Of a stretch of DNA of 64,000 nucleotides, positions 32,018-49,019 are shown in pieces (the first letter of the stretch is position 1; each line of letters opens with the position of its first letter). Below the pieces are notes generated by a model, which saw nothing but the letters and a program-made list of their open reading frames with translations, did not search any database and had not been told where the DNA came from. The position numbers were made by a program, and so were the translations under genes. Origin of the DNA: Candidatus Micrarchaeota archaeon (GTDB lineage: Archaea > Micrarchaeota > Micrarchaeia > Anstonellales > Anstonellaceae); contig JAOAKE010000001.1 of assembly GCA_026413805.1 (NCBI GenBank), forward strand, positions 30,199 through 94,198. The letters run 5' to 3'.

Positions 32018-32548
32018 ATGAGGAAGGTAAGCGTACTTCGGCTGGGCCACCGAATTGGGAGGGATAGGCGAATAACAACCCATGTTTTTTTGGCAGCGCG
32101 AGCGCTCGGGGCGAATGATGGGATTTTGTGCGGAGAGAAAGATGAAAGGTTGTTAGAGAGCATAAGGAAAGTGAGTAAGTTGTGGGGCGGGGCGTTTGTA
32201 GTGCGCTATGAAGAAAATTGGAAAAAATGCCTCATGGAAGAAAAGAGGCAGGGGAAGGTGGTTGTGCACCTTACTATGTATGGAGAACCATTTCTTGAAA
32301 GGGTTTCTTTGTTGAAGGAAAAAGAGTTGGTGGTTGTTGTAGGCGCAGGAAAGGTCCCTCCAGAGATTTACCACATTGCAGACTTTAACCTTGCAGTGAC
32401 TCAGCAACCCCATTCAGAAGTGTCTGCACTTGCGCTTTTTCTTGACAGGTATTTTGAAGGGAAGGAACTTTCTTTGAATTTTGAAGGGATGATAAAAATA
32501 CTGCCAAATAAGTGCGGTAAAAGTGTTGTTCGTGTAAAAAATGTATGA
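32018..32548 (+). CDS. tRNA (cytidine56-2'-O)-methyltransferase aTrm56 (SPOUT)
   Basis: VLRLGHRIGRDRRITTHVFLAARALGA N-terminus characteristic of aTrm56. Confidence 0.8.
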   Translation: MRKVSVLRLGHRIGRDRRITTHVFLAARALGANDGILCGEKDERLLESIRKVSKLWGGAFVVRYEENWKKCLMEEKRQGKVVVHLTMYGEPFLERVSLLKEKELVVVVGAGKVPPEIYHIADFNLAVTQQPHSEVSALALFLDRYFEGKELSLNFEGMIKILPNKCGKSVVRVKNV

Positions 32549-32587
32549 AGGAATAAATAGGGTGCGGCTAAAATTAAAGCGGTGAGC

Positions 32588-33154
32588 ATGGCGACTAAAA
32601 AGGCTCTTAAAAAAAAGAAGGTTAATTCTTCTAAGAAGGTTAAGAAGAAAGTTAGGAAAAAAAGCAAGGGATATGGTGGGGGGAGGATTGGTGGTGGAAA
32701 AAGGCCTAATTTTGAAACTCAGGTAAGGCGCGCCACTTATTCTAAAACTGCACGCCTGAGTGCGCTTGCCTGCGCAAAGACGAGGCAATGGTTGATTGAG
32801 ATGGGGGGAGAGAACACCATCGCCATAATCAAAGAGTTTGACATGGATATGAGTGATGAGGAGATTGCGAAAAAAACAGGAATACGCGCTTCTGATGTGA
32901 GAGTGGTGTTAAATCGGCTGCATGGTTGTGGGTTGTTTTCTTATACTCGAGTCCGAGACCGTGATAGTGGATGGTACTCGTATATTTGGAAGTTAAATGA
33001 GGAAAAGCTAAGGCAAGTGGTTGAAGGAGAAAACACTATTATGGTGGAAAAGGTTGAGGAAGAGCCTGTTGTTGAAGAAAGATATTTGGAAAAAAACATG
33101 TTAAATGAGGGGCGTGTGGTAAAAAGACCACCTGCCCTTCAAAAAGGCTTTTAA
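32588..33154 (+). CDS. tfe: transcription factor E (TFE/TFIIE-alpha winged helix) with ~60-aa Lys/Gly-rich N-terminal extension
   Basis: wH core IAIIKEF...SDEEIAKKTGIRASDVRVVLNRLHGCGLFSYTRVRDRDSGWYSYIWKLN; N-terminal KKALKKKKVNSSKKVKKKVRKKSKGYGGGRIGGG. Confidence 0.75.
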   Translation: MATKKALKKKKVNSSKKVKKKVRKKSKGYGGGRIGGGKRPNFETQVRRATYSKTARLSALACAKTRQWLIEMGGENTIAIIKEFDMDMSDEEIAKKTGIRASDVRVVLNRLHGCGLFSYTRVRDRDSGWYSYIWKLNEEKLRQVVEGENTIMVEKVEEEPVVEERYLEKNMLNEGRVVKRPPALQKGF

Positions 33155-33178
33155 GCCAACCTATTTCTATAAACTGCC

Positions 33179-33253
33179 AGCGGGATAGGGTAGCTTGGAG
33201 TGCCCGCTGGGCTCATAACCCAGAGATCAGTGGTTCAAATCCACTTCCCGCTA
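33179..33253 (+). tRNA. initiator tRNA-Met (anticodon CAU)
   Basis: Hand-folded cloverleaf: acceptor AGCGGGA/UCCCGCU with A1:U72, D-stem GGGU/GCCC, anticodon stem CUGGG/CCCAG with three G:C pairs next to loop CUCAUAA, T-arm AGUGG-UUCAAAU-CCACU, discriminator A; CCA not encoded. Confidence 0.8.
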
Positions 33254-33457
33254 TTTTGAGGTTGATCGCTGCGCCTTTTTGGTTCTTTCCCACCCCGGGC
33301 TTCCACTATTTAAGTGTATGTTCTTTTGTTTTGATTTTATTATGTAACTATGGTTACTATAAATAAGAAAAAACAACCAATATAAGAAAAAAATCAAATA
33401 AAAAACGAGATAATTAAAATAAAGAAAAGATAAAAATTAATGGAAGTGTGGGGATAC

Positions 33458-33736
33458 CTACCCTTCTAAGCCAACATTGGCGCTCTTTGAGACAACAACA
33501 ACATCTTCTATTGACTTAACCGACTTGAACAAAACAGAGCGGTCGCGAAGCACCCTTTTTGCCTCTTCTTTTGAAACTGCGTTGAGGGGGTCCATAGTTA
33601 GCCTGATAATCTCTCCCTTTTCCAAATCAAGAAGTATTTCTTGGACTCGCCCCAAAAACTTCCCACCATCTGTGTAAATATCCATTCCATATATCTTCGA
33701 AACCTTTATTGCCATAAACATCACCCTGGTCTGCAA
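33458..33736 (-). CDS. PRC-barrel domain protein
   Basis: Small protein with PRC-barrel-like pattern (IYGMDIYTDGGKFLGRVQEILLDLEKGEI); alternative starts at 33721/33715. Confidence 0.55.
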   Translation of the reverse strand: MQTRVMFMAIKVSKIYGMDIYTDGGKFLGRVQEILLDLEKGEIIRLTMDPLNAVSKEEAKRVLRDRSVLFKSVKSIEDVVVVSKSANVGLEG

Positions 33737-33781
33737 GCGTTTTCTTCACATCTCGAATTTAAAAACTTATCTTCAACCATC

Positions 33782-34777
33782 CTATTTTCTTCTTTTCAAA
33801 ACAAACACAGCCAACATCTCCAATGCCTTTCTCTTTGGGTTGCTAGGCAGAGCGCGAAGTAAAGAAAGCGCCTCTTTTATTTCCCTTTCAGCAGCTTGCA
33901 ATGCTCGCTTAGGAGCCCCGCTCTTTTTGATAAGGGAGAGGGCCATGTCTACCTCTTCATCCCCTTTTTTCTCTTTTTTAAGGATATTCAAAAGAAGCTG
34001 GCGGTCGTTGGGGGGCAGGGCTTTCAAGGCCTCAATGACTATTAAAGTGCGCTTGCCTTCCCTTATATCCCCACCTATTTCCTTTCCATACAGCGCCTCT
34101 TCCCCAACAATATTCAAGACATCATCAACAATCTGAAACCCCATCCCAATCTTCCTTCCAAATAAAGACAAGGCTCGGCACTGCCTTTCACTTCCACCAC
34201 CTAATAATCCCCCAACTTCACAAGAAACTGCAATAAGGGCGCCGGTCTTGCCGCTAATCACCCGCCTATACGCCGCCTCATCCACATCCCAATTATTGGC
34301 TTTATACCAACCAAGTTCAATAGCCTGCCCTTCCAAAACCTCTGTAAAAGCTGAAAGGAGCAGCTCCTGGGCCTTCTCTTTCTTTGGCCCTTTTATCCTG
34401 CGCGCCTCCCTCCAAACCATCATGAACAAACCATCCCCAGCATTTAGGGCAAGTGGGATTCCATACTTTACATGAAGGCAAGGGGAGCCCCTTCGCATCT
34501 TTGAGTCATCTTCAATATCATCATGTATTAGAGTAAAGTTATGAAACATCTCAATAGCAGTTGCTGCAGCCAGAGCGTCTTCCTTCTTTCCACCAACCAC
34601 TTCACAAGAAAGCAGGCAGAGAGCAGGCCTTAGGCGCTTGCCCTCAAAAGAAAAAAATTCAGAAAGAAGCCCGTAGACTTCTTTAGGTTCCTTTGGCTTG
34701 CCGAAAATCTCTTTTAACCTAGAGTCAACAGGCGCCACGGTCTTGCGCAAGATTTCATCAAGTTCAGCTTCATCCAT
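33782..34777 (-). CDS. geranylgeranyl diphosphate synthase (trans-polyprenyl synthetase)
   Basis: FARM LIHDDIEDDSKMRRG and SARM FQIVDDVLN motifs. Confidence 0.85.
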   Translation of the reverse strand: MDEAELDEILRKTVAPVDSRLKEIFGKPKEPKEVYGLLSEFFSFEGKRLRPALCLLSCEVVGGKKEDALAAATAIEMFHNFTLIHDDIEDDSKMRRGSPCLHVKYGIPLALNAGDGLFMMVWREARRIKGPKKEKAQELLLSAFTEVLEGQAIELGWYKANNWDVDEAAYRRVISGKTGALIAVSCEVGGLLGGGSERQCRALSLFGRKIGMGFQIVDDVLNIVGEEALYGKEIGGDIREGKRTLIVIEALKALPPNDRQLLLNILKKEKKGDEEVDMALSLIKKSGAPKRALQAAEREIKEALSLLRALPSNPKRKALEMLAVFVLKRRK

Positions 34778-34841
34778 CGTTCCACTTAGTTTTTGGGCAG
34801 TGCAATTGTTTTTATACCCTATTCCCTAAAAAATCGTCTGC

Positions 34842-34937
34842 GGGCCCATAGCTCAGCTTGGTAGAGCGGTGGACTCTTAATCCACGTGTCGGGGGTTCGA
34901 ATGCAGCCTCAGGCTGCCGGCGCTCCCTCTGGGCCCG
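34842..34937 (+). tRNA. tRNA-Lys (anticodon CUU) interrupted by a ~22-nt non-canonical intron in the T-loop (position ~59/60)
   Basis: Acceptor GGGCCCA/UGGGCCC, D-arm GCUC-AGCUUGGUA-GAGC, anticodon arm GUGGA-CUCUUAA-UCCAC, T-stem GGGGG...CCCUC; between UUCGAA and U-CCCUC lies UGCAGCCUCAGGCUGCCGGCGC containing hairpin GCAGCC-UCA-GGCUGC. Confidence 0.7.
34902..34923 (+). other. predicted tRNA intron (T-loop, non-canonical position) within tRNA-Lys
   Basis: Removal restores a canonical 7-nt T-loop UUCGAAU and 74-nt mature tRNA; exact splice junction ambiguous by 1 nt because of repeated U. Confidence 0.55.
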
Positions 34938-36423
34938 TTTCATTTGTTGTTTTGTTTGCTTTATCTTTGACTTGCTGGGATAAAAATTCCTCAATCAAAC
35001 CCTCCTCTGCCTTGGCCACACACTCATAATAGGCGCTTGTTTTGTTGAAGCCGCAAAATCCACTGTTGCATATGCATGATAGGTTTGCATAGCACTGCAA
35101 AATAGGGCCAGTTTCAACAGGGAAGGTGCGGGTGTCGTTTTTTGGCACGCAATATTGCCTTGCATTCCCCACAACTTTACAGTCACTGTCAGCGGCGCAG
35201 TTCTTCTGATCCATTAGCCTCTTGAGGCGTTCGGCTTCAGCAGCCACCTTCTTCTGGCCTTCAATAGAAGCATTAATACACACCTGCACCAAGCTGCTGT
35301 TTTTAAGCTTCTTGCACAGTTCGTATTCACCAGTGTTCTTCACAACCGAAATATAGCAGTCATCTTTCAAAATATCTAGCTTTTCGCAAAGAACCTTGTT
35401 GTTAGTCAGCTGCGCCACAACTAAAGTGCATTGCTCATAAATCGTGGCATTAGTTATTTTTTTGCAGACTTCCCACTTTTTCCTCTCAGCGCCCAAGGCA
35501 ACGTAACACTTGTCCCTCTCATATCCTTTTTGGATTTCGCATGTCTGCATAGAGACAAAGTCTTTCACAGAGCTTTGGTAATAGGCTGCAAAGGAGGAGG
35601 CACTAATGAGGCCCTCGGGCTTGGGCGGCAGTTGGGCCGCCTCGGTTTTTATTACAAAGTACTCTCTTTCATATCTCTGTGCCACGCCATTTAAGTAGTA
35701 GGTAGCAACAACCTTTGCTACCAACTTGCTTTCGCCATCAATCCAATAAGTTATCTTCCTGTTTGTTACAGACGTCACTTCTGGCGAATCAGGAGAAATG
35801 CCCGCTTCCATCAATTGCTTGACAGTAAGCTGCCTGTAGTCCAGAGAATATGATATTTTCGTAGCCTCAAAACCATTTATCTTCTCACTGCTGACCTCTT
35901 CAATAGTGATTGCCTTGTTGGTTATCAGAAAACGCATCTGGTCTTTCTGCGAAAGGTATAGCGCCCTGTCTGGGATGGCCTTTTTTATGTTGGAAAGCAC
36001 TCCCTTTACATCACTGTTGTTTTCTGCCATGGCGCAGCGCCGCTCGCCGCCATAAGCAAGGCACACCACATCAGAGCTTTCATTTTCCCCGAAAAACGCC
36101 TCCAAGTTTCCAAAGTTGCTTGTCAGGTTTACCCAACTTGACGTTCCGTTTTTCCCTATTTGGTAGCGGCTTTCTACCCCATCAGAAAGTTCTCGGTATT
36201 CTAAATAATAATCTTTAAGCGCAGCCCCTGCTTCATAGGTAGAAAGAAGCAGCTGCGCAGCAGGCGTGTCAATGGCAGGAACAGGCTCTCCCCGTGCGTT
36301 CAGCTGCGAATTCTCCTTTAAAAAATAGGCGGCTCCTGCTATCAGCAAAATTACCACTACCCCCAAGAGCAACAAAACGCGGCTGTCTATGCCAAGCTGC
36401 TTTTTTTCCTTGTCCTGGTTCAT
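34909..36423 (-). CDS. membrane-anchored extracellular protein with C-terminal Cys-pair repeats (hypothetical)
   Basis: N-terminal TM LLLLGVVVILLIAGAAYFL after short cytoplasmic tail; C-terminal region has 4+ copies of C-x(9-12)-C-[YI] repeat; ATG 36423 (track TTG 36441); 3' end overlaps tRNA-Lys on opposite strand. Confidence 0.5.
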   Translation of the reverse strand: MNQDKEKKQLGIDSRVLLLLGVVVILLIAGAAYFLKENSQLNARGEPVPAIDTPAAQLLLSTYEAGAALKDYYLEYRELSDGVESRYQIGKNGTSSWVNLTSNFGNLEAFFGENESSDVVCLAYGGERRCAMAENNSDVKGVLSNIKKAIPDRALYLSQKDQMRFLITNKAITIEEVSSEKINGFEATKISYSLDYRQLTVKQLMEAGISPDSPEVTSVTNRKITYWIDGESKLVAKVVATYYLNGVAQRYEREYFVIKTEAAQLPPKPEGLISASSFAAYYQSSVKDFVSMQTCEIQKGYERDKCYVALGAERKKWEVCKKITNATIYEQCTLVVAQLTNNKVLCEKLDILKDDCYISVVKNTGEYELCKKLKNSSLVQVCINASIEGQKKVAAEAERLKRLMDQKNCAADSDCKVVGNARQYCVPKNDTRTFPVETGPILQCYANLSCICNSGFCGFNKTSAYYECVAKAEEGLIEEFLSQQVKDKANKTTNETGPEGAPAA

Positions 36424-36511
36424 TGCTCTCCCTCCAGCCAAAACGCTAAATTCTTCTGAAAAGGTTATAATCTTTCTCTATTTTGTTTGGCGCGAGCAGC
36501 ACCTAATCCGC

Positions 36512-37675
36512 TTATCGCCCGGCAATTATTTTTATTACATCTCCATCTCCAAGCAAATGGTCTGCGCCAATCCTGGTCTTTCTTTTTACATCAATCGCCC
36601 CTATAAACTTAGCAGCAAGCTCGCTGTGCACCATCCCCGCAAGCTGGCGCGCAGTTGTTCCCTTTGGGACTAAGAACGCATCCGGCAAAATCTCCCCTTT
36701 ATGGTTAGAGAGCCTATGTTCATCCTCAACAGGGTAAACTACAATTGCCCCCATTTTCTTGTACACTGCCCAGTCTATTATCTCCTGCACCCCGCTGCTT
36801 TTGTGGGCTTTGAGGAACGCATCTATCTGTGATAGGGCCTCCTTTTGTTTTTCATCAGGCGTTCCCACTAGCTTAAAAGAGCCCTGCCCCGGGGCATACT
36901 CGATCAATCCATGCTCTGCCGCCTTTCGCAGGGCAAGCTCTATCGCTGCGCTGCAGGCAAATACATTTTCAAGCCCTCTTTGCCTTGCCTTTTCAAATTC
37001 TTCTTTTGCGCCGGGCAGGTCCACTTTGTTGAAAGCGACGGCTATAGGAAATCGCATCTCCACCAGCTTCTGGGCTATTCGTTTCATTCCATCATCATCA
37101 GGCATGGTGCCATCGCCTACCTCCAGCCCACAAGAAGCAGCAGCCTGCAAAAGCATTCCCTCGCTTATCCTCAGGCCAGAAAGCGAAAGGGCGGCTTCCT
37201 TCAATGCCAAGTGCCGCCCTCCGCCCTTCCTTTTCATTATTTCAAAGACCCACATCGCTATTTCTTCTTTTAAAAAAGCAACCTCGTCCATTGGGGAGCA
37301 GCCTTGGCACGGGTTGCCATGCAAGTCAGTTTTTCCGCTGCCATCCACAACTTGGATAAATACGTCGGCTTCACGCAGCGAATCTAGAAAGCGGTTGCCA
37401 AGCCCCCTCCCCTTATGGGCTTCTGGCACAAGCCCAGGCGTGTCAATTATGCCGACTGGCACGAGGCGAACGCCATCAACGCATTTTGAATTTTTGGGGT
37501 TGCAGGCTTTCAGTCCAAGCTCCACGTGTGGGCATTGCGCCCTAACATAAGTCACTCCTCTGCTTGCGGTAGTAGTGGTAAAGGGATAGTTTGCTATTGC
37601 AGCATCAACCATAGTAACCGCTGCAAAAAAAGTGCTCTTTCCTTTGTTAGGGGCGCCAACCACTCCAAGAAGCAT
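36512..37675 (-). CDS. Obg-family GTPase, YchF/OLA1-like with TGS domain
   Basis: MLLGVVGAPNKGKSTFF P-loop, DTPGLV G3, C-terminal TGS-like region. Confidence 0.8.
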   Translation of the reverse strand: MLLGVVGAPNKGKSTFFAAVTMVDAAIANYPFTTTTASRGVTYVRAQCPHVELGLKACNPKNSKCVDGVRLVPVGIIDTPGLVPEAHKGRGLGNRFLDSLREADVFIQVVDGSGKTDLHGNPCQGCSPMDEVAFLKEEIAMWVFEIMKRKGGGRHLALKEAALSLSGLRISEGMLLQAAASCGLEVGDGTMPDDDGMKRIAQKLVEMRFPIAVAFNKVDLPGAKEEFEKARQRGLENVFACSAAIELALRKAAEHGLIEYAPGQGSFKLVGTPDEKQKEALSQIDAFLKAHKSSGVQEIIDWAVYKKMGAIVVYPVEDEHRLSNHKGEILPDAFLVPKGTTARQLAGMVHSELAAKFIGAIDVKRKTRIGADHLLGDGDVIKIIAGR

Positions 37676-37728
37676 GCTTTAGACAAGGAAGCCATCACTA
37701 TTAAAGCTTAACACAGAATTATCACTAC

Positions 37729-38940
37729 ATGCTCTTCTCATCTGAAAAGCCGCAAAGACTCTCAGAAATAGCAGGCAACCAACCTGCCATGTCTGAGATA
37801 AAAAAATGGGCCGATGCTTGGGAAAAGGGAGGCGCACAAAAACCCCTTTTGATATTTGGCCCTCCAGGGACAGGAAAAACCTCCATAGCATACGCACTCG
37901 CATCCGAATATGGATGGGGAATTTTTGAGTTCAATGCCTCTGATTTGCGCGATGAGGCAGCAGCTGAGCGGTTTCTTGCAAATGCTTCCCTTTCAGGCAG
38001 CCTTTTTGGGAAAAGGAAGCTCATATTAATTGATGATGTAGACTCGCTTTCCCCCCAAGAAGACAAAGGAGGGCTAGCCGCAATCTCAAAAATAATTACT
38101 TCCTCCAAGCAGCCCACAATACTAACTGCTATTGACTATTACGACAAAAAGCTCCAAGGCATAAGGGGCAGCTGCACTCCTGTAAAGCTGCAAAGAGTCT
38201 ATTTGCCGACCATCCTCTCGCTCCTTAAAAAAATTGCAGCTAAACATAAAGTAGAAGTGAGCGAGAAAGACCTAGCAGCAGTGGCCTCTGCTTCTGGCGG
38301 CGATGTTCGCGCAGCCCTCAATGACTTGCAGGCCCGCAACCTGAGTGCAAGGCGGGACTCCCAAAAAAACATATTTGAAGTAGTTCGCGCCATCTTCAAG
38401 TCCAGCGCATATTCAGAGGCGCGCAGGGCAGCTTTTGATTCTGAAACCGAGCACGATACCCTCAAGCTCTGGATAGCAGAGAACATACCTGTAGAATATG
38501 AAAAGCCATTTGACATAGCAGAGGCATACAATTCCCTTTCGCGCGCAGATGTGTTCGACGGCAGGATACTAAAAAGGCAGTACTGGGGCTTTCTGCGCTA
38601 CTCCTCTGACCACATCTCAGCAGGAGTGGCGGTTGCAAAAAGCTCTCGTTATAGCAAGTTTTCCACTTATGCTTACCCGAACTATATCAAAGAGATGGGA
38701 GCAACCAAGTCCTCGCGCCAGCTGCGAAAGGCAATCTTGCGAAAAATCGCGCTTGCCTGCCACTGCTCAATGAGGCAAGCTGAAGCATACCTTTTCTTGC
38801 TTAACCTCCTTTCCTCAAAGGACGCACAAGGAACTGCAAAGTTTTTTGGATTTAACGAAGACGAGCTTCAATTCCTTGCATCCCTGCCTTCAAATGCTGC
38901 TGCCAGCAGGGGAGCAGGCAGGCAAAAAAGCGGAGGCTGA
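37729..38940 (+). CDS. rfcL: replication factor C large subunit
   Basis: W..W....KPLLIFGPPGTGKTSIAYALA...FNASD pattern, AAA+ core, sensor motifs; possible start at 37789. Confidence 0.8.
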   Translation: MLFSSEKPQRLSEIAGNQPAMSEIKKWADAWEKGGAQKPLLIFGPPGTGKTSIAYALASEYGWGIFEFNASDLRDEAAAERFLANASLSGSLFGKRKLILIDDVDSLSPQEDKGGLAAISKIITSSKQPTILTAIDYYDKKLQGIRGSCTPVKLQRVYLPTILSLLKKIAAKHKVEVSEKDLAAVASASGGDVRAALNDLQARNLSARRDSQKNIFEVVRAIFKSSAYSEARRAAFDSETEHDTLKLWIAENIPVEYEKPFDIAEAYNSLSRADVFDGRILKRQYWGFLRYSSDHISAGVAVAKSSRYSKFSTYAYPNYIKEMGATKSSRQLRKAILRKIALACHCSMRQAEAYLFLLNLLSSKDAQGTAKFFGFNEDELQFLASLPSNAAASRGAGRQKSGG

Positions 38941-38942
38941 AT

Positions 38943-39383
38943 ATGAAGCGGTTTCACCCGTCCCCGAAGAAAAAATGGGTGCAGGCGGCATGCATCCTCC
39001 TTTTTTTTGCTATCGTGATTTTTGCCCTTCCCATCCCGATGGATGCCACGCTGTCCTACACATCTTTCTTTTTTTTGGCGCTTGTTGTCCTCGCATCCGC
39101 CATGCTTGAGACAGCGCGCATGCTGCTTATCACCTACACCATGTCAGATGACGCAATAACAATGGAGAAGACATTTTTGTCCTCATTCAAGCACACCATC
39201 CCATTCAAAAGCATAGACAACATATTTACAAAAGCATCTGCGGTTGACAGGCTCTTGTCGCTGGCAGACGTCTATATAGACACGCCCGGGGGCTTTGGCT
39301 TTGAGATGGTGATGCATGACATCCCGCAAGAGGTGGCAGATGAGCTTCTTGCGGCAGTGAAAAAGGTAAAAGGTAGTGGTTAG
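38943..39383 (+). CDS. membrane protein with bacterial-type PH domain (bPH_2/YdbS-like)
   Basis: Two N-terminal TM helices followed by ~80-aa domain with IPFKSIDNI...VYIDTPGG pattern. Confidence 0.55.
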   Translation: MKRFHPSPKKKWVQAACILLFFAIVIFALPIPMDATLSYTSFFFLALVVLASAMLETARMLLITYTMSDDAITMEKTFLSSFKHTIPFKSIDNIFTKASAVDRLLSLADVYIDTPGGFGFEMVMHDIPQEVADELLAAVKKVKGSG

Positions 39384-39884
39384 ATGCTTGTTGAATCTAA
39401 GAAGAAAAAAGGGTTTTTTGAGGAAACGAACAATGAGCTTGCCTCTCTTTTTGCCGAGGCTGGCGCAGGGTTTTCGTTCCAAAAGCAGTTCCTTTTCCAC
39501 CCACTGGAAGCCGCCTATTTTGTTAAAATCGGAAAGGCAGCTTTCAAGGATTTCAAGACTTTTGAAAGCTTCCTGTCGCGCTGGAGGCAGAAAGACCCGT
39601 CATTTCCCTTTGCATTTTCAGTCTATTTTGCCATCCGCCAGACAGGAAGGCTCATCTATCCATACATGAAAAAAACGAACTTCTTTCGCGTCTATTCCCC
39701 CGGAGTTGGCAGGCAGGATTCCCGTCCTTCCCAACTGGTTTGCCTCTTGCCAGGGAAGTTTCCATCGCAAAAAACACTTGAGAACGAGGTAAGAGTTGCA
39801 CACCTTGCAAGGCTGGATTTGATAGTTGCATGCGGAACCCCGCAAAACATAAGGTTTTACAAAATCTCCAGCTTCAATTTCTAG
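39384..39884 (+). CDS. tRNA-splicing endonuclease family protein lacking catalytic His/Lys (putative structural/beta-type subunit)
   Basis: C-terminal block NFFRVYSPG...QLVCLL...RVAHLARLDLIVACG aligns with EndA catalytic-domain blocks GADFRLY / HS.YLV / RVAHSVRKKLLIA but His and Lys positions are substituted; N-terminal EAAYFVKIGK resembles EndA N-domain; ATG with AGGTAG RBS. Confidence 0.55.
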   Translation: MLVESKKKKGFFEETNNELASLFAEAGAGFSFQKQFLFHPLEAAYFVKIGKAAFKDFKTFESFLSRWRQKDPSFPFAFSVYFAIRQTGRLIYPYMKKTNFFRVYSPGVGRQDSRPSQLVCLLPGKFPSQKTLENEVRVAHLARLDLIVACGTPQNIRFYKISSFNF

Positions 39885-39938
39885 CTTCCGCGCCCCATCT
39901 ACAAATAGTGTTTTATTACTCCTTACAGTTTTTTTCGC

Positions 39939-40442
39939 ATGCAGCATTGCCTTTCATGTGGCGCAACTATTGACGAGTTTGATTCAGCTTACTATGCCCG
40001 CACAATGCTTTGCATCCCATGCTGGACAAGAAAGGCTTCAGAGCTCGCAAAATCCCCCTGCCCTCGCTGTGGGGTGCTTGTGCGAAAGGAGGAGGCAAGG
40101 CTAAGGGAAGGAAGGTATTACTGCGGGCACTGCTTTTTTGAGCTTGAAAGGCTGGAAAAAATCCCACAAAAGCCATTATGCACCCTTTGCAGGAATGCAA
40201 TTGAGGACTGGCAGGGCAGCATAAGGTCTCCGGCCGGGCAATTCTTCCACAAATCATGCCTTGAGGACATCAAGAAAGGGCGGCATGCTGCCCGCTGCAT
40301 TAGGTGTGGCAGGCAGACAGACATCTATTCAGTTTCGCCTGATGGATTGATTACCTGCTTTGAGTGCGCAAAAAAAGGAGAGGGCACACAGAAAGCCGCC
40401 TCGCTTTTGGTAAGCATATTCAATCGCGTGATGCCTCGCTGA
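39939..40442 (+). CDS. multi-zinc-ribbon protein (five CxxC-containing pairs), hypothetical
   Basis: CLSCG, CIPCW, CPRCG, CGHCF, CTLCR, CIRCG, CFEC motifs regularly spaced. Confidence 0.5.
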   Translation: MQHCLSCGATIDEFDSAYYARTMLCIPCWTRKASELAKSPCPRCGVLVRKEEARLREGRYYCGHCFFELERLEKIPQKPLCTLCRNAIEDWQGSIRSPAGQFFHKSCLEDIKKGRHAARCIRCGRQTDIYSVSPDGLITCFECAKKGEGTQKAASLLVSIFNRVMPR

Positions 40443-40498
40443 CGTTTTCAGCCCAACCCAAATCAAATACTTAATAAACTTCCTCCCAAAATAATAAT

Positions 40499-41371
40499 AT
40501 GGTCGCCAAGCTTCTGGCCAGCCAGAACTCTTCCTATCTTTTTCCAGCTGGCATTGAGCTTAAGAACTTCCCAGACAAGGAAAGCCATGTTTTGGTAAAA
40601 GACCTTGAGTCATTGCGCGGGCAAGACGTGCAGGTTCTCCATCGCTGCTACCCCAAGCAAGACAGCAGCCTTGTCCAGCTCTTTTTAATTGGCAGGACGG
40701 TTGCCAAAGTGGCAAATCGCATGGAAGCAATTATCCCCTACTTACCATATGCCCGGCAGGACAAGATCTGGAAGCCCGGCGAGGCGCTTTCTGCCGAAGC
40801 GGTCTGCGAAATGATAAAGGCAGCAGGGTTTTCATCAATAGCCACCTTTGACTGCCACTTCATAAAGAAGCCTGGCGAAACAACTTACGGCGGAATCCGA
40901 ATACGCAACTTCTCACTTTCAAGCGCCCTCGTCTCTTACTTTAAGGCAAAAAAGCCAGACGCGATATTCATCTCCCCTGATGAAGGGGCAAAATACTTGG
41001 TAAGCGAAAGCGGCGGGGCGTCAATGGTCAAAAAGAGGGGCGACTATGCAAACCATAAAAAGAGGGCAGTCCGCCAGGTCGAGTCCCTTGAGCTGAATGG
41101 CGGGCTCGATGTTCGCGGCAAAGACGTAATCATACTTGACGACATGATTGCAGGCGGGGGCACCATGATTCGCGCAGTTCGCGCAGTAATTTCGCTTGGC
41201 GCGCGTTCAGTTTGCTGTGGCTGCACACACGGGCTGTTTTTAGGGGACTCTTACACAAAGCTTCAAGATGCCGGCGCCGAAGAAATAGTCTCTTCAAACA
41301 CAATTGCCTCCGAGGCTTCAAAGATAGACATATTGCCCGAGATAAAAAACAAAATACTGGGCACTTTCTAA
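40499..41371 (+). CDS. prs: ribose-phosphate pyrophosphokinase (PRPP synthetase)
   Basis: PRPP-binding loop VIILDDMIAGGGTM and N-terminal Prs pattern. Confidence 0.8.
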   Translation: MVAKLLASQNSSYLFPAGIELKNFPDKESHVLVKDLESLRGQDVQVLHRCYPKQDSSLVQLFLIGRTVAKVANRMEAIIPYLPYARQDKIWKPGEALSAEAVCEMIKAAGFSSIATFDCHFIKKPGETTYGGIRIRNFSLSSALVSYFKAKKPDAIFISPDEGAKYLVSESGGASMVKKRGDYANHKKRAVRQVESLELNGGLDVRGKDVIILDDMIAGGGTMIRAVRAVISLGARSVCCGCTHGLFLGDSYTKLQDAGAEEIVSSNTIASEASKIDILPEIKNKILGTF

Positions 41372-41387
41372 ATTTACCTTTGCGCTT

Positions 41388-42911
41388 ATGTGTGGCTTGC
41401 TGTCTGCCCAAAAGGTGCTTTCTGGGGAGGTTGCAGCCAGGACCTTTTTTGTCCGCCCGCCAGAGCCCGTCCCTCAACTGTTGGTCTCAAGCCCAGCAGA
41501 ATCGATATACATCGGAAAGACCAAGCTGTTAAAAGTACCTTTCTTTTGGAACCCAGCCAAGCTAATCAACCCTCATCTGTGCATTGTGGGCATTACAGGC
41601 TCTGGCAAATCCTATTTTGTAAAGGCATTCACTACCCGCGCACGCCTTGTTTTCAATGCCAATATCCTCATACTGGACTGGGCGGGCGAATATGTGGAGT
41701 GGGTGCGGCTCGCAGGCGGCAAGGTAATTTCATTTGGCGAGAACGGAATCAACCTGCTAGACCCCGGCCAAGCCACCCCGGAGATTCGCATGCGGCAGGT
41801 AATCTCTGCATTGGAGATGCTTACCGACTTGGCAAGCTTTCCTTCGCAGCGCTCCCTTACTGAAGAAGCTATAGAAAAGGCGTACTTGCAGAGGGGCCTT
41901 TCCTTGAACAAAGCAGGTCAGCAAAAAAAGCCACCTACCCTTGCAGAGGTGCACGCCATTTTAAAAAAGGATGCAAAAAGGTCCCAGGCAGCCTCTGAAG
42001 CAGCAAGGAGGGTTAATTCCCTTCTGCTTTCATCTGGCAAGTCATTTTCTCACTCTACCATTGGGATAGACTCAATCCTCTCGGGCCTTGTGTGCATTGA
42101 TTTGCACTCCCTGCCAACCGAGTCTCTAAGAAGCCTTGCAGGCCTGACAATACTTCAGTTCATTAAAGACAGGATGCGCTCCGAGCAGTTCCAAGCAGAG
42201 GGCAGGCCCAGGCTCTTTGTGGTGGTTGACGAGGCTTGGAAGATTGCTTCTGATGAGCGCTCCGATGTAATCTCCATCGTGCGGGAGGGCAGAAAGTATG
42301 GCTTTGGGTTGATAATTGCCTCCCAAAACCCAACTGACATTCACAAAAGCATTTTTTCAAATGCAGGGACAACATTCATCTTCCGCCTGACCCTTGCCTC
42401 CGAGCGCGAATACCTTCGCTCTTCCCTTTCTTATTCAGACTATTATGAAGAAGCCTCGCATAGCATGGGGGTAGGGCAGGCCCTCGTCCACATCGAGCCA
42501 GCAGCAGCAATCCCCTGCCCGCGCAATTTCATAATAGATAAAGTCGACGGAGAGCCCCTCCTCGAAGTTTGCTATATTTGCGGTGGTGGCATGAACCTTG
42601 AAATGGAAAAAGAATTTTTGGTGCGCAAGCTGCATAATTTCGGCTTGACTGAAAGGCAGGTCGCCCACCTGCTTGGAAGGTTTGAGCGAGGAAGCTTTAC
42701 TTTAGACGCCCCAACCTTCATTTTAGAGCTAGAGAAATTTGGGCATAGCCGCGCTGCAATAATTATGCTTTTGCGCGACCTCGGGGCCCATGAAAAAGAC
42801 CTTCTTCGCCTTTTCTCATCAGCATTTCAAAAAGGCAAGGCAAAGATTTCAGTGGAGCTATCTACAGAAAAGGAAAAAGAAAAAAGCCGGAGGCAGAAAA
42901 ACAAACCATAG
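41388..42911 (+). CDS. HerA/FtsK-superfamily ATPase with DUF87-like domain (VirB4/CedB/HerA-like)
   Basis: P-loop HLCIVGITGSGKSYFVKAF, Walker B LFVVVDEAWKIA, downstream GFGLIIASQNPTD typical of DUF87/HerA-like ATPases. Confidence 0.65.
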   Translation: MCGLLSAQKVLSGEVAARTFFVRPPEPVPQLLVSSPAESIYIGKTKLLKVPFFWNPAKLINPHLCIVGITGSGKSYFVKAFTTRARLVFNANILILDWAGEYVEWVRLAGGKVISFGENGINLLDPGQATPEIRMRQVISALEMLTDLASFPSQRSLTEEAIEKAYLQRGLSLNKAGQQKKPPTLAEVHAILKKDAKRSQAASEAARRVNSLLLSSGKSFSHSTIGIDSILSGLVCIDLHSLPTESLRSLAGLTILQFIKDRMRSEQFQAEGRPRLFVVVDEAWKIASDERSDVISIVREGRKYGFGLIIASQNPTDIHKSIFSNAGTTFIFRLTLASEREYLRSSLSYSDYYEEASHSMGVGQALVHIEPAAAIPCPRNFIIDKVDGEPLLEVCYICGGGMNLEMEKEFLVRKLHNFGLTERQVAHLLGRFERGSFTLDAPTFILELEKFGHSRAAIIMLLRDLGAHEKDLLRLFSSAFQKGKAKISVELSTEKEKEKSRRQKNKP

Positions 42912-42920
42912 GGTGTTCCC

Positions 42921-43766
42921 ATGTCGTTGAAAGAAAAAACGATAAAGCTTGATTTCTCCATCCCAATTTTTTTCAAGGGAAGCTGGCCCCCAGACACCTC
43001 TTTGCTTGCAGCAGCTGGCTTTGACTCAATCTCAATATCTTCCCGAGCCTTAAAGATAACTAAAGTGCATGGCACTGATTTGGTTGGCACCCCGAACAAC
43101 ATGACTCAAATAACCATACAAAAAGGCAGCGCCACAATCACCATTCTCGCCCCAAGCCAAACTGATGAAGAAGCTGCCAAGATGAGAGCAATACTTATTT
43201 TTCTGCGAGTGGCTCGTCTCATCCCAGGCTTATCTGCCGAATTGTCCAAAGTCTCAGAACTTATCCTGCCTTCGCTCGAGGTGGCAAATTCCATCTTTTC
43301 TTCTTCTTATGATTCGCTTTTGAAAAGGCATAAAGACTTGGAAGAGCTGTTTTATGAGGAGCAGAAAAAGAACAAGCAGCTTGCAAAAATGTCTGAGGAG
43401 CTTGCAGCTTCCAACCTTGACCTTGAAAAGCAAGTCGGGGAGCTAAAGGAGTGGCGGCGCAGGCTCGAAACACTGCCTGATGAAGCCCTCTGCGAGCTGG
43501 TGCTGGATTGGGTCAACACCCATAGGGGCACATTCAGCCTGCCAAGCTTCTCCAAAGCCACGGGGGTACCGCCTGCAAGGGCAGAAGAAGGGCTTGAAAT
43601 GCTTCTTAAAAAAGGCGTCCTTCGCCGTCTGAAAAGCGGGTTTGCCCAAGAGTCTTCCCTTGCTGAAAGGCAGTTTGAAGTGAAAGGCCTCTTGCCAGGG
43701 AGGGCAAAAGATTCAATCTATCGCTGGCTGCGCAACACCTTCTCTTCATCTATCAAAAACAAGTAG
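42921..43766 (+). CDS. hypothetical protein, N-terminal alpha/beta domain, central coiled coil, C-terminal winged-helix-like region
   Basis: ATG with AGGGTG RBS 10 nt after ATPase stop (operon-like); no catalytic motif. Confidence 0.45.
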   Translation: MSLKEKTIKLDFSIPIFFKGSWPPDTSLLAAAGFDSISISSRALKITKVHGTDLVGTPNNMTQITIQKGSATITILAPSQTDEEAAKMRAILIFLRVARLIPGLSAELSKVSELILPSLEVANSIFSSSYDSLLKRHKDLEELFYEEQKKNKQLAKMSEELAASNLDLEKQVGELKEWRRRLETLPDEALCELVLDWVNTHRGTFSLPSFSKATGVPPARAEEGLEMLLKKGVLRRLKSGFAQESSLAERQFEVKGLLPGRAKDSIYRWLRNTFSSSIKNK

Positions 43767-46084
43767 CAGCCAGCGGCAGCCACTAAGCCAAAGGCAACAA
43801 GAAGCACAACATGCCATCCTATCGCAGGCTCTGCCGTTATTTCAAATTCCCCCTGGCCAATCCCACTTATTTTTGAAAGAGAAGTTTTTTCGTCTTTTAT
43901 TATTTCACAAGTGCCCTTCTTGTTCGTGCATTTGGAGTTAAGAAGGGCATAATTGCAAAGAAAGATAGTGCAGTTATCCTTTTCACATCTCCCCTTTAGC
44001 CAAGCCTTGCCATACCAAATGCGATATGACTCCACTTTTGCATCCTCAGAGTAATAGCCAACAGGGGCTATTGAAGGCATATCTTTTAGTGCAAAGAGCC
44101 TGCCTGCGCCAGAGGAAACAATTTCTATAAACCGCCCGTCATTTTTAATTTCCAGGTATTCTTCATACCTAGTCTTTTCATCCGGTTCATATGAAAGCTT
44201 GTTATTTCCTAGTATAACATACTTGCTGTTGCGCTCTTTCATGTTTTCGTAAAGAGAGTTGGCATCTACGTACCATTGATGGCCGATGAACGAGGGCCAT
44301 AAGCTGCTTATCGGGTAATGAGACACTAAATTATATGGGATAAAGGCAACATAGCCATCTTTTGCTGTAGCCCTGACTTCTTCTAAAAATTCCCATTCTA
44401 TTGCGAAGCCAACATCGTCTGCCAAATTCCTATAGATGAGTGCCTGCCTTTCAAAGACGCCTGCACAATGTATAGCAGTGGGGATAGAAAGAAGAACCAC
44501 TGCGCCCAAGACAGTAATGTCATCCAGCTTAGAGCTTTTTTTAAATGAAGCTATGCACCGTTTTCCATAATCATATAGCCGCTGCATGCCCATGCCTGCA
44601 ACAAAAAACATTGGCAAGAAAAAAGAGGGAAAGTACCTCAACCCATCCAAAAAGTCAAAGTAGTCATTTGCCTGCGGGCTGGTGGCAATTGCCAATATAA
44701 TTAACGCCTTCGAGGCAAGCAAGGCAGGAAAAAGCAGCTTCTGTTTCCATATGGCATAGCCACCCAAAATAATCAAAATAGGCAGCACAAGTGTTCCCAC
44801 TTGCAGCAGGGCGACAAGAGGCTGGTGCCAATCTGAAATAGACACCCCTCCAAGCTGTGCAGGAGGCAAAGTCAAAAGGTTCTCCCAGACAAACAAGGCA
44901 TAGCCTACAGACAATGACAAGCAGGCAAAAGCCAAAACAACCACTCTCTTTCGCAACCTACCTTCCAAAAATGCTGCTAAAAAAAGGACAAGGAGCATCA
45001 CAAGTAGTGGGAAAAAAATCTTTGGATGGCACAACAAGGCAGCTGCAAAAACAAAGGCTGCCAGCAGAAATCTCGCTTTCTTTTTTTCAAAGACAAATTC
45101 GTATGCAAAATAGAAAAAAAGCAAAGTAAGGTACGTTGCAAGGGTTCGCGGCAGCATGCCATACTTAAACAAGTCTGGCCAGCCGCCAACCAACAGCCCG
45201 CTACTTGGTATGAAAAGGTAGATAAGCGAGCTAAAGACAAACACAGCTTCCCTGCCAGCTGGAATCTTTCTTGAAAACAGGTAAAAGAGGGCTATTGGGG
45301 CAAAAAACAAGATTATTGCATACACCTTGAATGCATATTGGGGCGTTATCCCAAAAACAGCGCTCATTAAGGCAGCTGGAAGCACGCTGGCAAATGAATA
45401 TATAGCAACGGGCCAAGCCCCCTCTTTGAGATGATCAACAAGAATAGCGGTTCTGTCCAGATGGGCTGGTGCATCAGTGCCGTAAAAAGAGGAGGGCATC
45501 TTTTCATTATAAACAGGCTTCCAGCTTGGCGAGAGATAGAGGCCCAAAAGGGGAGTTGCCTGGCTTATTCTTCTCGGGCGGAAGAATCCCTCCAGCTTCC
45601 CCCAATCATCTTTTTTCTCAGCTTCAGCTTCTTTTTTGCCTATTTCAGCAAATAAATCCAGCTCTCCCTCTATTTTCAAATCTACTTTATATCTGCTCTC
45701 ATTGCAAGGAGCGCAGATAGCCACGCCATTTATTTCAAGGTAATCTAGCCTCAGCTCTCCTTCACTTAAGCCAATTTCAACTTGGTCTACCTTGCCCTGA
45801 CCTAAAAAAGAGGAATTTACTTGATAGCCATCAACGTTCATTACAGGAATAACTAGTCGATTATACGCTGCAAATGAATCAAAAGAAGCATTTACAACTT
45901 GTCCATCCTCCTCATATGTCCCAAAAGAAAGGGCCTTTTGGTAATGAAACTCGGGCTCTAAAATCCCTATTCTTAATGCAATAATGATGCAAGTGATTGC
46001 AACCAGAAGAAAAGGAACCCTGTCTTTTAACCGAAGCACCCCACAGCAAAAGGAAGGCCTTTCTTTCCGAGCAGTTTTCCCCAT
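43718..46084 (-). CDS. large (788 aa) polytopic membrane protein with N-terminal signal-anchor, ~220-aa extracytoplasmic domain, ~10 TM core and C-terminal Cys-containing domain plus terminal TM; possible GT-C-type glycosyltransferase
   Basis: Hydropathy pattern from translation; ATG confirmed; no family signature recognised with confidence. Confidence 0.5.
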   Translation of the reverse strand: MGKTARKERPSFCCGVLRLKDRVPFLLVAITCIIIALRIGILEPEFHYQKALSFGTYEEDGQVVNASFDSFAAYNRLVIPVMNVDGYQVNSSFLGQGKVDQVEIGLSEGELRLDYLEINGVAICAPCNESRYKVDLKIEGELDLFAEIGKKEAEAEKKDDWGKLEGFFRPRRISQATPLLGLYLSPSWKPVYNEKMPSSFYGTDAPAHLDRTAILVDHLKEGAWPVAIYSFASVLPAALMSAVFGITPQYAFKVYAIILFFAPIALFYLFSRKIPAGREAVFVFSSLIYLFIPSSGLLVGGWPDLFKYGMLPRTLATYLTLLFFYFAYEFVFEKKKARFLLAAFVFAAALLCHPKIFFPLLVMLLVLFLAAFLEGRLRKRVVVLAFACLSLSVGYALFVWENLLTLPPAQLGGVSISDWHQPLVALLQVGTLVLPILIILGGYAIWKQKLLFPALLASKALIILAIATSPQANDYFDFLDGLRYFPSFFLPMFFVAGMGMQRLYDYGKRCIASFKKSSKLDDITVLGAVVLLSIPTAIHCAGVFERQALIYRNLADDVGFAIEWEFLEEVRATAKDGYVAFIPYNLVSHYPISSLWPSFIGHQWYVDANSLYENMKERNSKYVILGNNKLSYEPDEKTRYEEYLEIKNDGRFIEIVSSGAGRLFALKDMPSIAPVGYYSEDAKVESYRIWYGKAWLKGRCEKDNCTIFLCNYALLNSKCTNKKGTCEIIKDEKTSLSKISGIGQGEFEITAEPAIGWHVVLLVAFGLVAAAGCYLFLIDEEKVLRSQR

Positions 46085-46099
46085 TTTGCCATCCCCTTT

Positions 46100-49014: not shown

Positions 49015-49019
49015 TCTGC

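Follow-up and report, generated by a model that had tools for sequence, protein, structure and literature searches.

Introduction

The gene at positions 39384 to 39884 of the stretch of DNA analysed here (the window: 64,000 nucleotides of a Candidatus Micrarchaeota contig) raises a simple question. If the genome possesses a complete, fused tRNA-splicing endonuclease (EndA), what does it do with a second, stand-alone EndA-like protein in which two of the three catalytic residues have been replaced? Archaeal splicing endonucleases are grouped into four closed types by subunit composition, and the origin of one of them, the epsilon2 of Micrarchaeota, regarded as a single-gene enzyme, has been called elusive (PMC5829648). 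The paper that reported the discovery of epsilon2 took in only proteins with an existing endonuclease annotation, and we found no description of the present protein in the literature, the epsilon2 papers included. An earlier note on this DNA read the gene as a stand-alone EndA paralog lacking the catalytic His and Lys, and as a candidate structural subunit that, if the protein was real, might pair with the fused enzyme. We posit instead, with a probability of about 0.5, that the paralog is a pseudo-endonuclease which was kept and took on a new function, probably that of a dimer that binds RNA without cleaving it.

A conserved gene under purifying selection

39384..39884, forward strand: gene for the 166-aa EndA alpha-type paralog, stop codon included, with an ATG start; identified by open reading frame, homologs, profile, AF2/Foldseek and dN/dS

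An NCBI "hypothetical protein" from a Candidatus Micrarchaeota MAG (P0001) has the same sequence as the predicted product (100% identity), and the homology search returned 82 homologs at 40-66% identity. Further loci came from a scan of a genome collection with alignment A1 and a metagenome scan with alignment A6. Across a 41-sequence alignment of the paralog the start and the length are conserved and 20 columns are invariant, and dN/dS for the gene lies between 0.07 and 0.13, at dS values (0.5-0.9) that are not saturated. Identity between genomes is 52-58%, similar to that of the replication factor C large subunit (RFC-L) at the same loci (51-62%). The open reading frame is a real gene under purifying selection, which settles the proviso in the earlier note; a chance ORF is excluded because of the 82 homologs and the low dN/dS. 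The view that the paralog is a decaying remnant or a chance ORF without function could appeal to a single-sequence Pfam score under threshold and to the missing catalytic residues, but its probability is close to nil in the face of the selection estimates, the invariant columns, the conserved start and length, a confident predicted fold and the presence of the family across the Micrarchaeota. We hence rejected a pseudogene or chance ORF on the dN/dS values and the conservation.

EndA homology and predicted fold

Judged by its single sequence, the paralog is a marginal member of the EndA group. Pfam PF01974 matches it with an E-value of 0.004 and 17.6 bits, below the gathering score of 27 bits; NCBIfam PRK09300 matches at E 6e-5, the PRK09300 models scoring 17-22 bits against curated cut-offs above 500; and TIGR00324 (catalytic tRNA-intron lyase, EC 4.6.1.16) does not match. 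The best single-sequence match in the PDB is 5x89 (E 4.4e-7). The earlier note had proposed a profile search as a check, and the 41-sequence profile does find EndA in the PDB, with E-values of 7.6e-16 for 1r0v (A. fulgidus EndA), 9e-13 for 5x89, 2e-9 for 1a79 and 2.6e-8 for the alpha unit of 4fz2. Homology to EndA, weak by the single sequence, is thus unambiguous at the level of profile comparison.

The structural predictions agree with this assignment. The AF2 model of the paralog (pLDDT 90.8, pTM 0.86) has 1a79_A, the M. jannaschii EndA, as its top Foldseek match (TM 0.81), and 2cv8, 3ajv, 5x89 and 4fz2 are all matched with probability 1.00. The model has both domains of the EndA alpha-subunit fold in full, an N-terminal alpha/beta domain followed by a C-terminal endonuclease-like domain, and both fold and profile similarity place the paralog in the EndA fold superfamily (PF02778 plus PF01974). 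The reading of the gene as a stand-alone EndA paralog is borne out by these results.

39384..39659, forward strand: EndA N-terminal domain (residues 1-92), containing the conserved blocks PLEAAYL and F.FA..Y..IR..GR; delimited by profile and conservation

The N-terminal domains of 1r0v, 5x89 and 1a79 align to positions 21-92 of the paralog profile. In the C-terminal half, BLASTP of the paralog against the window's fused enzyme aligns FFRVYSPG with HFRLYMPG and VRVAHLARLDLIVA with IRVAHSVKKTFVLA, the same blocks that the earlier note had matched to the EndA catalytic domain.

Active-site residues, L10 loop and C-terminal strand

Residue states were counted over 41 homologs, with positions set by HMM alignment to M. 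jannaschii EndA (1a79), in which Y115, H125 and K156 correspond to Y104, R114 and L144 of the paralog.

39693..39695, forward strand: codon of Tyr104, the retained Tyr of the catalytic triad (in FRVY), aligned with M. jannaschii Y115; Tyr in 39 of 41 homologs
39723..39728, forward strand: codons of Arg114 and Pro115 at the site of the catalytic His (RPSQL against HS.YL); Arg in 40 of 41, Pro in 40 of 41
39813..39815, forward strand: codon of Leu144 at the site of the catalytic Lys (AHLARLD against AHSVRK), by alignment to 1a79, 5x89 and 1r0v; Leu in 41 of 41
39837..39851, forward strand: loop equivalent to L10, residues 152-156 (TPQNI; family consensus TEKEI), aligned with the DADGD loop of M. 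jannaschii
39849..39881, forward strand: strand and tail at the C-terminus (IRFYKISSFNF), corresponding to the beta-strand by which EndA subunits pair; by conservation and an AF2 strand at 156-161

The replacement of the catalytic His and Lys, claimed originally for one sequence, is hence a fixed trait of the whole alignment, in which R114 and L144 are almost or fully invariant. His occurs at aligned position 114 or at the adjacent 115 in none of the 41 homologs, and in one of them it is found at position 117, off the catalytic site. In most of the distant Micrarchaeota subfamilies, Arg likewise occupies the position of the catalytic His (39 of the 47 listed). Both residues are required in the characterised EndAs, and loss of either abolishes cleavage. 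The paralog would then be a full-length, well-folded alpha subunit for which the known route of RNA cleavage is closed: Arg stands in for the general-acid His and Leu for the transition-state Lys, and of the triad only the Tyr is left. In the ARMAN-2 enzyme, alanine mutants of the predicted triad (Y236A, H251A and K282A) were made to test it (PMC3488258).

The surroundings of the former active site have been remodelled. The loop between Tyr104 and the former His carries a family-specific PGVGRE..RP motif, the paralog lacks the G.K.G hairpin that bears the pocket Lys, and the equivalent of that Lys, position 96, is not conserved among the 41 homologs. The best-conserved blocks of the paralog are YAPGVGRE..RPSQL and AHLARLDL, which line the canonical active site, together with the C-terminal strand. 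K/R137 (38 of 41) and K160 (41 of 41) are the equivalents of the substrate cation-pi residues R275/R280 and W384/R302, the equivalence of K160 being deduced from residue spacing, as the alignments end before it. The proteins of the family are basic, with a median pI of 9.6.

The former active-site loops are better conserved than any other part of the protein, and two Arg and one His close by are invariant. This might suggest that the paralog is still a nuclease, one that uses other residues (for example Tyr104 with Arg114, Arg110 or His140) and either acts slowly or cuts something different from the standard BHB. An older subfamily points the same way: it has kept the Tyr and the Lys and changed only the His to Arg, within a very rigid motif, RVYRKGFRPGEDRT. 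Arg is, however, a poor general acid, the Lys has become a hydrophobic Leu in every one of the 41 homologs and an intact epsilon enzyme is present in the window, and we regard residual cleavage as very improbable.

At least one acidic residue is found in the L10 loop of 40 of the 41 homologs (E153 in 31, E155 in 35, and the E-x-E pattern in about three quarters of the family), and the window paralog, with TPQNI, is alone in having none. The C-terminal strand, with the consensus (F/Y)YK(I/V)S(S/A)(F/Y)N(F/W), is among the best-conserved segments of the paralog; K160 and N165 are invariant over the 41 homologs, and Y159 and S162 are present in at least 90%.

Descent of the paralog family

Profile-profile comparison with hhalign connects the paralog to canonical alpha subunits through intermediates. 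The scores are 238 for canonical alpha against subfamily A3, 240 for A3 against GV, 219 for GV against the paralog subfamily A1 and 118 for A1 against canonical alpha. Against the units of epsilon, A1 scores 37 (alpha), 27 (alphaN) and 17 (betaC), and the alphaN of epsilon scores 92 against canonical alpha. By these comparisons the family is a graded series, leading from the canonical single-unit alpha, through His-to-Arg forms that retain the Lys, to the window form of the paralog at its end, and the profile alignments trace the paralog to alpha-type subunits. The alternatives that the paralog arose by duplication of an epsilon unit, or that it was the donor of alphaN, were rejected on the same scores (37, 27 and 17 against 118).

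A1, GV and A3 are positional orthologs, because a block consisting of a GTPase, a bPH_2 protein, the paralog and a HerA-like ATPase recurs in all three locus types. The paralog would accordingly represent, in each lineage, one ancient Micrarchaeota gene that arose from a single-unit (alpha4-like) endonuclease subunit. All named members of the family are Micrarchaeota; the only labels found are "Micrarchaeota", "Micrarchaeia", "Anstonella stagnisolia", "Bilamarchaeaceae" and one "ainarchaeum sp.", and neither cluster look-ups nor the homology search found a member under the names ARMAN-2, Mia14 or A_DKE. Two relatives with a complete triad, P0219 and P0221, lie in a neighbourhood that differs from that of the paralog.

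The fused enzyme and the question of pairing

50766..51953, forward strand: intact epsilon-type three-unit EndA, 395 aa; matched to 4fz2_A over residues 4-395 (E 8.8e-133), and by Pfam and NCBIfam

The fused EndA pointed out in the earlier note proves to be of the epsilon2 type, with alphaN, alpha and betaC in one polypeptide that aligns to 4fz2_A over its full length. Under the residue names of PMC3488258 and PMC12397907, the alignment to 4fz2_A indicates that the triad, the pocket K/R, the D/E of L10 and the Tyr-Lys of the ASL are all kept. Judged by this conservation, it is the catalytic tRNA-splicing endonuclease of the window genome; it is also the only catalytic EndA found in the window, and no separate catalytic alpha subunit that would need a beta partner was found there. 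The crystal structure of epsilon2 is a closed equivalent of four units, in which alphaN and betaC form the structural unit, and the recombinant enzyme needs no partner to cleave introns (PMC3239211, PMC3488258). In the epsilon protein of the window, the alpha unit relies on the betaC of its own chain and on the L10 of the second protomer.

Could the paralog be an accessory structural subunit of epsilon? It would have to dock on the fused protein through its L10 loop or its C-terminal strand, giving a larger or alternative quaternary form, for example by replacing the betaC contact of one protomer or by capping free L10 and pocket elements. The pattern of conservation in the family is beta-like in that the triad is lost, E-x-E is present in the L10 of most members, the strand is conserved and the Lys at position 96 is not; moreover, the E-x-E of the family resembles the epsilon2 assembly loop D357-x-E359, so that it could dock on a catalytic partner. 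There is also a precedent, since an "EndA-like" gene of M. kandleri proved to encode a beta subunit (PMC5829648). Conservation of the gene pair in related genomes, which had been suggested as a further check, is real to the extent that in 12 or more cases one contig carries both paralog and epsilon, which lie 8-11 kb apart in the window and at three other loci (L010, L023 and L024). Around the paralogs of the distant subfamilies (L003-L005 and L030-L047), no epsilon was found within 10 kb.

Several observations nonetheless make this arrangement unlikely. In epsilon2 both canonical interfaces are already occupied, inside each protomer and from one protomer to the other, and the enzyme is active alone in vitro. 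A beta-type subunit needs a free partner with an unoccupied strand and pocket, and none was found in the window, the epsilon there being self-served and keeping its pocket K/R and L10 D/E; the window paralog, for its part, has no acid in L10. The beta-subunit models NF007084-NF007086 do not match the paralog, whereas they do match the betaC of the window's epsilon. In the same contigs the paralog evolves much faster, at 52-58% identity against 81-86% for epsilon. In two more distant genomes, no paralog was found within 10 kb of epsilon. The structural-subunit idea of the earlier note consequently stands in part: triad loss, the usual E-x-E loop and the conserved strand fit it, and the absence of a beta-model match and the non-acidic L10 of the window copy do not. 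Pairing with the fused enzyme, by contrast, finds no support, as that enzyme is of a kind that is closed and active alone, it keeps its own self-assembly residues and the paralog is no closer to its units than to generic alpha subunits.

Comparison with known EndA systems

With the alpha subunits of alpha4-type enzymes (M. jannaschii 1a79; DPANN alpha4) the paralog shares its length class, the two-domain fold (TM 0.81), conserved blocks, the catalytic Tyr, the arginine of FR.Y and the C-terminal strand. Unlike them, it has Arg for His and Leu for Lys, no G.K.G hairpin, the family-specific PGVGRE..RP loop between Tyr and the former His, and a separate complete enzyme alongside. The beta subunits of (alpha-beta)2 enzymes (A. 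pernix, N. equitans, P. aerophilum and the "EndA-like" 5x89 of M. kandleri) resemble it as EndA-fold proteins with a gene of their own and, by sequence, without catalysis, and with most members of its family they have in common the acidity of an L10-type loop and the conservation of the pairing strand; the paralog differs from them in being closest to alpha-type units, in matching no beta model and, in the window copy, in its non-acidic L10.

The epsilon2 of Candidatus Micrarchaeum acidiphilum ARMAN-2 (4fz2, 9w2k) belongs to the same phylum and contains degenerate structural units, alphaN and betaC. We would make a distinction here, in that the paralog is a separate polypeptide with no specific kinship to alphaN, alpha or betaC. 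The N-terminal pseudo-catalytic repeat of alpha'2 enzymes (A. fulgidus 1r0v, T. acidophilum 2ohc) is, like the paralog, derived from alpha and deprived of the triad, and it serves as a structural half; the N-terminal domain of the paralog aligns to both repeats of 1r0v, but the paralog is free-standing whereas the repeat and its catalytic partner form a single chain. Sen54 and Sen15, structural subunits in eukaryotes, also have the EndA fold without the catalytic residues (TM about 0.75 for Sen54). The likeness is at the level of the fold, with profile E-values of 0.2-0.5, and Sen54 and Sen15 are obligatory in a heterotetramer that would have empty interfaces if they were missing.

Proposed role

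We infer that the paralog has lost its activity, forms dimers, binds RNA and works independently of epsilon2, and suggest the following course of events. Splicing catalysis in the window genome would be carried out by the separate, self-sufficient epsilon2, and the old subunit would afterwards have been kept under strong purifying selection in a changed role. A non-cleaving RNA-binding or scaffold function appears most likely, with the conserved C-terminal strand as the pairing element, probably in a homodimer, and with bulged or helical RNA held in the remodelled cleft of the former active site by Y104, R110, R114, K/R137, R143 and K160. The paralog would not be a stoichiometric fifth subunit bound to epsilon2 via the canonical interfaces. 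It is probably the relic of an older enzyme, now in an undescribed non-cutting job.

A more ambitious version of this proposal, which we advance tentatively and with considerable doubt, is that the family is a phylum-wide, overlooked second component of RNA splicing: a fossil of the ancestral alpha4 enzyme in which the His-to-Arg change, and later Lys-to-Leu or Lys-to-Met, became fixed, leaving a non-cleaving reader of the BHB. It might compete with epsilon2, chaperone it or modulate it, for instance by holding stems of pre-tRNA or rRNA processing or by passing exons on. In a more extreme variant, the Tyr-Arg-Lys forms of other Micrarchaeota would still be active, with Arg at the position of the general acid. 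If the BHB-reader reading were true, the gene would be direct evidence of epsilon2 displacing an older enzyme; were the protein unrelated to splicing, it would be one more uncharacterised family of DPANN pseudoenzymes.

The pseudo-endonuclease that we favour would matter in other respects as well. It would be a candidate extra player, invisible to biochemical and structural work on recombinant epsilon2, and an instance of an enzyme subunit kept as a pseudoenzyme after non-orthologous displacement. If, as is likely, it is what remains of the enzyme displaced by epsilon, the history of the fourth EndA type would become open to testing.

Gene neighbourhood

37729..38940, forward strand: replication factor C large subunit (RFC-L), first gene of the row; NCBIfam NF003230, E 5e-109
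38943..39383, forward strand: bPH_2 membrane protein, abutting the ATG of the paralog; PF03703, E 4e-8
39939..40442, forward strand: 167-aa protein with four zinc-ribbon pairs, the commonest immediate downstream neighbour and a candidate partner; by Cys pattern and adjacency

The operon-like row described previously is tightly packed, with RFC-L ending at 38940, bPH_2 occupying 38943..39383 and the paralog starting at 39384. RFC-L lies upstream of the paralog in all 22 genome-scan loci that have upstream DNA (the 22nd locus, L029, being a C-terminal fragment), and bPH_2 also in L003, L008-L010, L032, L038 and L040. The zinc-ribbon protein, whose Cys pattern is invariant in 15 homologs, could be assigned to no specific family; its matches are to generic double-zinc-ribbon and LIM models, and its PDB matches (E above 0.01) look spurious.

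A function outside splicing, in which the paralog is a nucleic-acid-binding adaptor in a module with the zinc-ribbon protein or, elsewhere, with the HerA-like ATPase, would draw on this arrangement. The zinc-ribbon gene adjoins the paralog downstream in 14 of the 21 close loci that could be assessed; L003 and L004, the deepest two of the syntenic loci, have it there as well, and in L004 base 9053 is both the last of the paralog range and the first of the zinc-ribbon range; at A3-type loci, a HerA-like ATPase follows the paralog after 8-300 nt in 8 of 16 metagenome loci. We consider such a module distinctly unlikely. Adjacency to the zinc-ribbon gene is lost in a whole subclade (L012, L015, L016, L019, L020, L022 and L026) and in L005, L030 and L031, and the protein itself is without a specific family. 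The region is an old syntenic housekeeping block, and adjacency may hence only reflect ancestry. Gene context provides no functional anchor for the pseudo-endonuclease either, since the zinc-ribbon, bPH_2, RFC-L and HerA-like neighbours are each lineage-dependent. A TATA-like TTTTATTA, read by eye about 24-31 nt upstream of the ATG of the zinc-ribbon gene in the window, suggests that this gene has a promoter of its own, a further point against the module.

Identity of the EndA paralog

We suggest, with a probability of about 0.5, that the stand-alone 166-aa EndA paralog is a pseudo-endonuclease, retained after the fused three-unit (alphaN-alpha-betaC) EndA of the same window, epsilon, took over catalysis. 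This seems to us the most economical reading; the protein would then work, we infer, as a dimer that binds RNA without cutting it or serves as a scaffold. The gene lies in the following row.

37729..38940, + strand: replication factor C large subunit (RFC-L), followed after a 2-nt gap by the next gene
38943..39383, + strand: bPH_2 membrane protein, its stop codon directly abutting the paralog ORF
39384..39884, + strand: paralog ORF, ATG start, 166 aa
39837..39851, + strand: paralog residues 152-156, equivalent to the interface loop L10 of EndA units; TPQNI against the family consensus TEKEI
39939..40442, + strand: Zn-ribbon gene, product of about 170 aa with four CxxC...CxxC zinc-ribbon pairs
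41388..42911: HerA-like (DUF87) ATPase, 1.5 kb downstream of the paralog, beyond the genes for the Zn-ribbon protein and PRPP synthetase

Taken singly, the paralog sequence gives weak matches: it scores 17.6 bits against Pfam PF01974 (E 0.004), short of the 27 bits required, and hits NCBIfam PRK09300 at 6e-5 and PDB 5x89 at 4.4e-7. With a profile of 41 close homologs (A1), the relationship to EndA is unambiguous: the EndAs of A. fulgidus (7.6e-16), M. kandleri (9e-13) and M. jannaschii (2e-9) and the alpha unit of ARMAN-2 EndA (2.6e-8) are all recovered, the matches to EndAs spanning the N-terminal and C-terminal domains. An AlphaFold2 model built on A1 (pLDDT 90.8, pTM 0.86) finds the M. jannaschii alpha subunit as its closest structure (TM 0.81), followed by EndA subunits only. 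The earlier note, which had proposed an EndA paralog and named a missing EndA match or a different fold as the contrary outcome, is thus borne out.

The same note placed the loss of the catalytic His within SRPSQLV and that of the Lys within ARLD, and rightly so, since Y115, H125 and K156 of M. jannaschii EndA fall on Y104, R114 and L144 of the paralog in the HMM alignment, although alignments of the loops around these residues shift by one or two positions depending on the method. Position 104 is Tyr in 39 of 41 homologs, position 114 is Arg in 40/41 and followed by Pro in 40/41, and position 144 is Leu in every one; none of the 41 has a His at or beside the aligned catalytic-His position. 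The protein is very likely an EndA homolog that would be inactive by the canonical mechanism. Residual or alternative catalysis strikes us as unlikely.

The product is a 100% match to a "hypothetical protein" of a Candidatus Micrarchaeota MAG, which marks the window as DNA of Micrarchaeota. That it might be a decaying remnant is ruled out by its 82 homologs (40-66% identity, all about 165 aa), by 20 invariant columns in A1, by dN/dS of 0.07-0.13 (pairs with dS 0.5-0.9), and by a divergence between genomes (52-58% identity) like that of RFC-L at the same loci (51-62%). One MAG carries RFC-L followed by a paralog copy on each of two contigs (CAZYTZ010000062.1 and CAZYTZ010000013.1), so that either the gene has been duplicated or the bin mixes strains.

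Origin of the family

When 1.84 billion representatives were searched exhaustively by profile, the close family came up first, followed by remoter proteins of 145-200 aa that form two groups, GV and A3. Members of the GV group have the RGVGRE.ER loop in common, and their catalytic Lys is either retained (e.g. Anstonella stagnisolia VVB58920.1) or changed to Leu or Met. The A3 group is marked by its rigid RVYRKGFRPGEDRT motif and keeps Tyr and Lys, with Arg, rarely Lys or Pro, at the His position; A3-type proteins (140-170 aa; P0361-P0403, alignments A3 and A6, loci L030-L047) are widespread among Micrarchaeota. All named members of the paralog family are Micrarchaeota, except one labelled "Candidatus ainarchaeum sp."

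Profile-profile scores link the groups in series, from the canonical single-unit alpha subunit to A3 (238), A3 to GV (240) and GV to A1 (219), with A1 to canonical alpha at 118. Scores to epsilon units are far lower (A1 to epsilon alpha 37, A1 to betaC 17, alphaN to A1 27), and exclude the paralog as a copy of an epsilon unit or as the source of alphaN. Genes of all three groups are found at the same place in the genome, in a block of an Obg-like GTPase gene on the opposite strand, optional RFC-L and bPH_2 genes, the paralog, optional Zn-ribbon and PRPP synthetase genes, and the HerA-like ATPase gene. From the graded scores together with this common position we conclude that A1, GV and A3 are one and the same ancient gene of Micrarchaeota, which goes back to a single-unit alpha subunit. 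The change of His to Arg was fixed first, and that of Lys to Leu later, in the lineage of the window.

In A3-type loci L033, L034, L036, L037, L039, L042, L045 and L046 the HerA-like ATPase gene lies immediately 3' of the paralog (gap of 8 nt in L037). The 281-aa protein encoded after the window's ATPase matched none of the families tested.

The commonest gene directly 3' of the paralog, deep-branching Micrarchaeota included, is the Zn-ribbon gene (also L002 10538-11056, L003 10525-11037, L004 9053-9598), whose product has a very conserved N-terminal motif, M..CL.CG..IDE(Y/F)DS.YY.R.MLCIPC. A link between the two proteins is a lead, though a doubtful one: of the 21 close loci that could be assessed, 14 have the two genes side by side, as do two deep-branching loci, but the Zn-ribbon gene is absent from a whole subclade and from A3-type loci, and its product matched no specific family, only generic Zn-ribbon/LIM ones.

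Interfaces and the epsilon enzyme

When ARMAN-2 residues are mapped onto the 41 homologs, the tetramerisation elements are kept only in part. The arginine of FR.Y (R234 equivalent) is invariant as R102, position 96, which corresponds to the pocket Lys K228, holds Lys in just 18/41, and the family lacks the G.K.G hairpin. Conservation is among the highest in the C-terminal strand and tail, where K160 and N165 are invariant. A basic residue matches the cation-pi substrate residue of active enzymes in 38/41 (K/R137), K160 (41/41) may, to judge by residue spacing, be the second such position, and the protein is basic (pI about 9.6). This pattern would suit a unit that still pairs via its strand and in which the cleft of the former active site stays conserved and positively charged.

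The epsilon gene lies beside a second gene of tRNA maturation.

49604..50650, - strand: radical-SAM wyosine-formation gene (Taw1/TYW1-like), divergent from and adjoining epsilon
50766..51953, + strand: epsilon, 395 aa, ATG start backed by homologs and the 4fz2 alignment (called mechanically as 50616..51953, TTG start, 445 aa)

In its alignment to 4fz2 (E 8.8e-133 over residues 4-395) epsilon keeps the triad, the pocket Lys and Arg, the L10 Asp and Glu, the ASL Tyr-Lys and the C-terminal Trp, residues whose roles have been described (PMC3488258, PMC12397907). In the crystal structure of epsilon2, the dimeric enzyme of ARMAN-2, the structural unit is made up of alphaN and betaC, the alpha unit has betaC of its own chain as its mate, and the pocket of each protomer takes up its counterpart's L10 loop, so that epsilon2 amounts to the usual four-unit enzyme in closed form (PMC3488258). 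Since recombinant epsilon2 alone also cuts strict and relaxed substrates (PMC3488258), none of its canonical interfaces is left free for a further subunit. The closed architecture counts against the earlier note's idea that the paralog is an accessory subunit of epsilon, which is improbable, if less so than a link to the Zn-ribbon protein. Most members have T-E-K-E in the L10-equivalent loop (E153 31/41, E155 35/41), an acidic pattern that agrees with such a role, as does a precedent in M. kandleri (PMC5829648), but the window's copy is the sole one of 41 without an acidic residue there, and the paralog lacks beta-type similarity.

The paper that discovered epsilon2 took from ARMAN genomes only proteins already annotated as splicing endonuclease. 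The epsilon2 structure papers, a 2018 survey and a 2019 review treat epsilon2 as an enzyme encoded by one gene, call its origin elusive (PMC5829648) and make no mention of a stand-alone EndA paralog; a full-text literature search for such a gene in Micrarchaeota or DPANN found nothing. Database labels of family members read "hypothetical protein" or, automatically, "tRNA splicing endonuclease".

The paralog and epsilon lie 8-11 kb apart on one contig in the window and in L010, L023 and L024, and size matches between the two homolog lists indicate eight further shared contigs (40688, 72638, 192341, 180697, 16396, 158292, 34970 and 103059).

The Taw1/TYW1-like gene and epsilon are a conserved pair of tRNA-maturation genes; a distant Micrarchaeota genome (L048) has the same divergent arrangement (8926-9933, - strand, and 10001-11179, + strand). 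Disrupted or non-canonical-intron tRNA genes are common among Micrarchaeota, and ARAGORN, which would miss such genes, reports one tRNA gene in the window (1..64000), tRNA-Met at 33179..33253. In same-contig pairs epsilon is unusually conserved relative to the window copy (81-86% identity) when compared with the paralog (52-58%), RFC-L (51-62%) and the HerA-like ATPase (56-69%).
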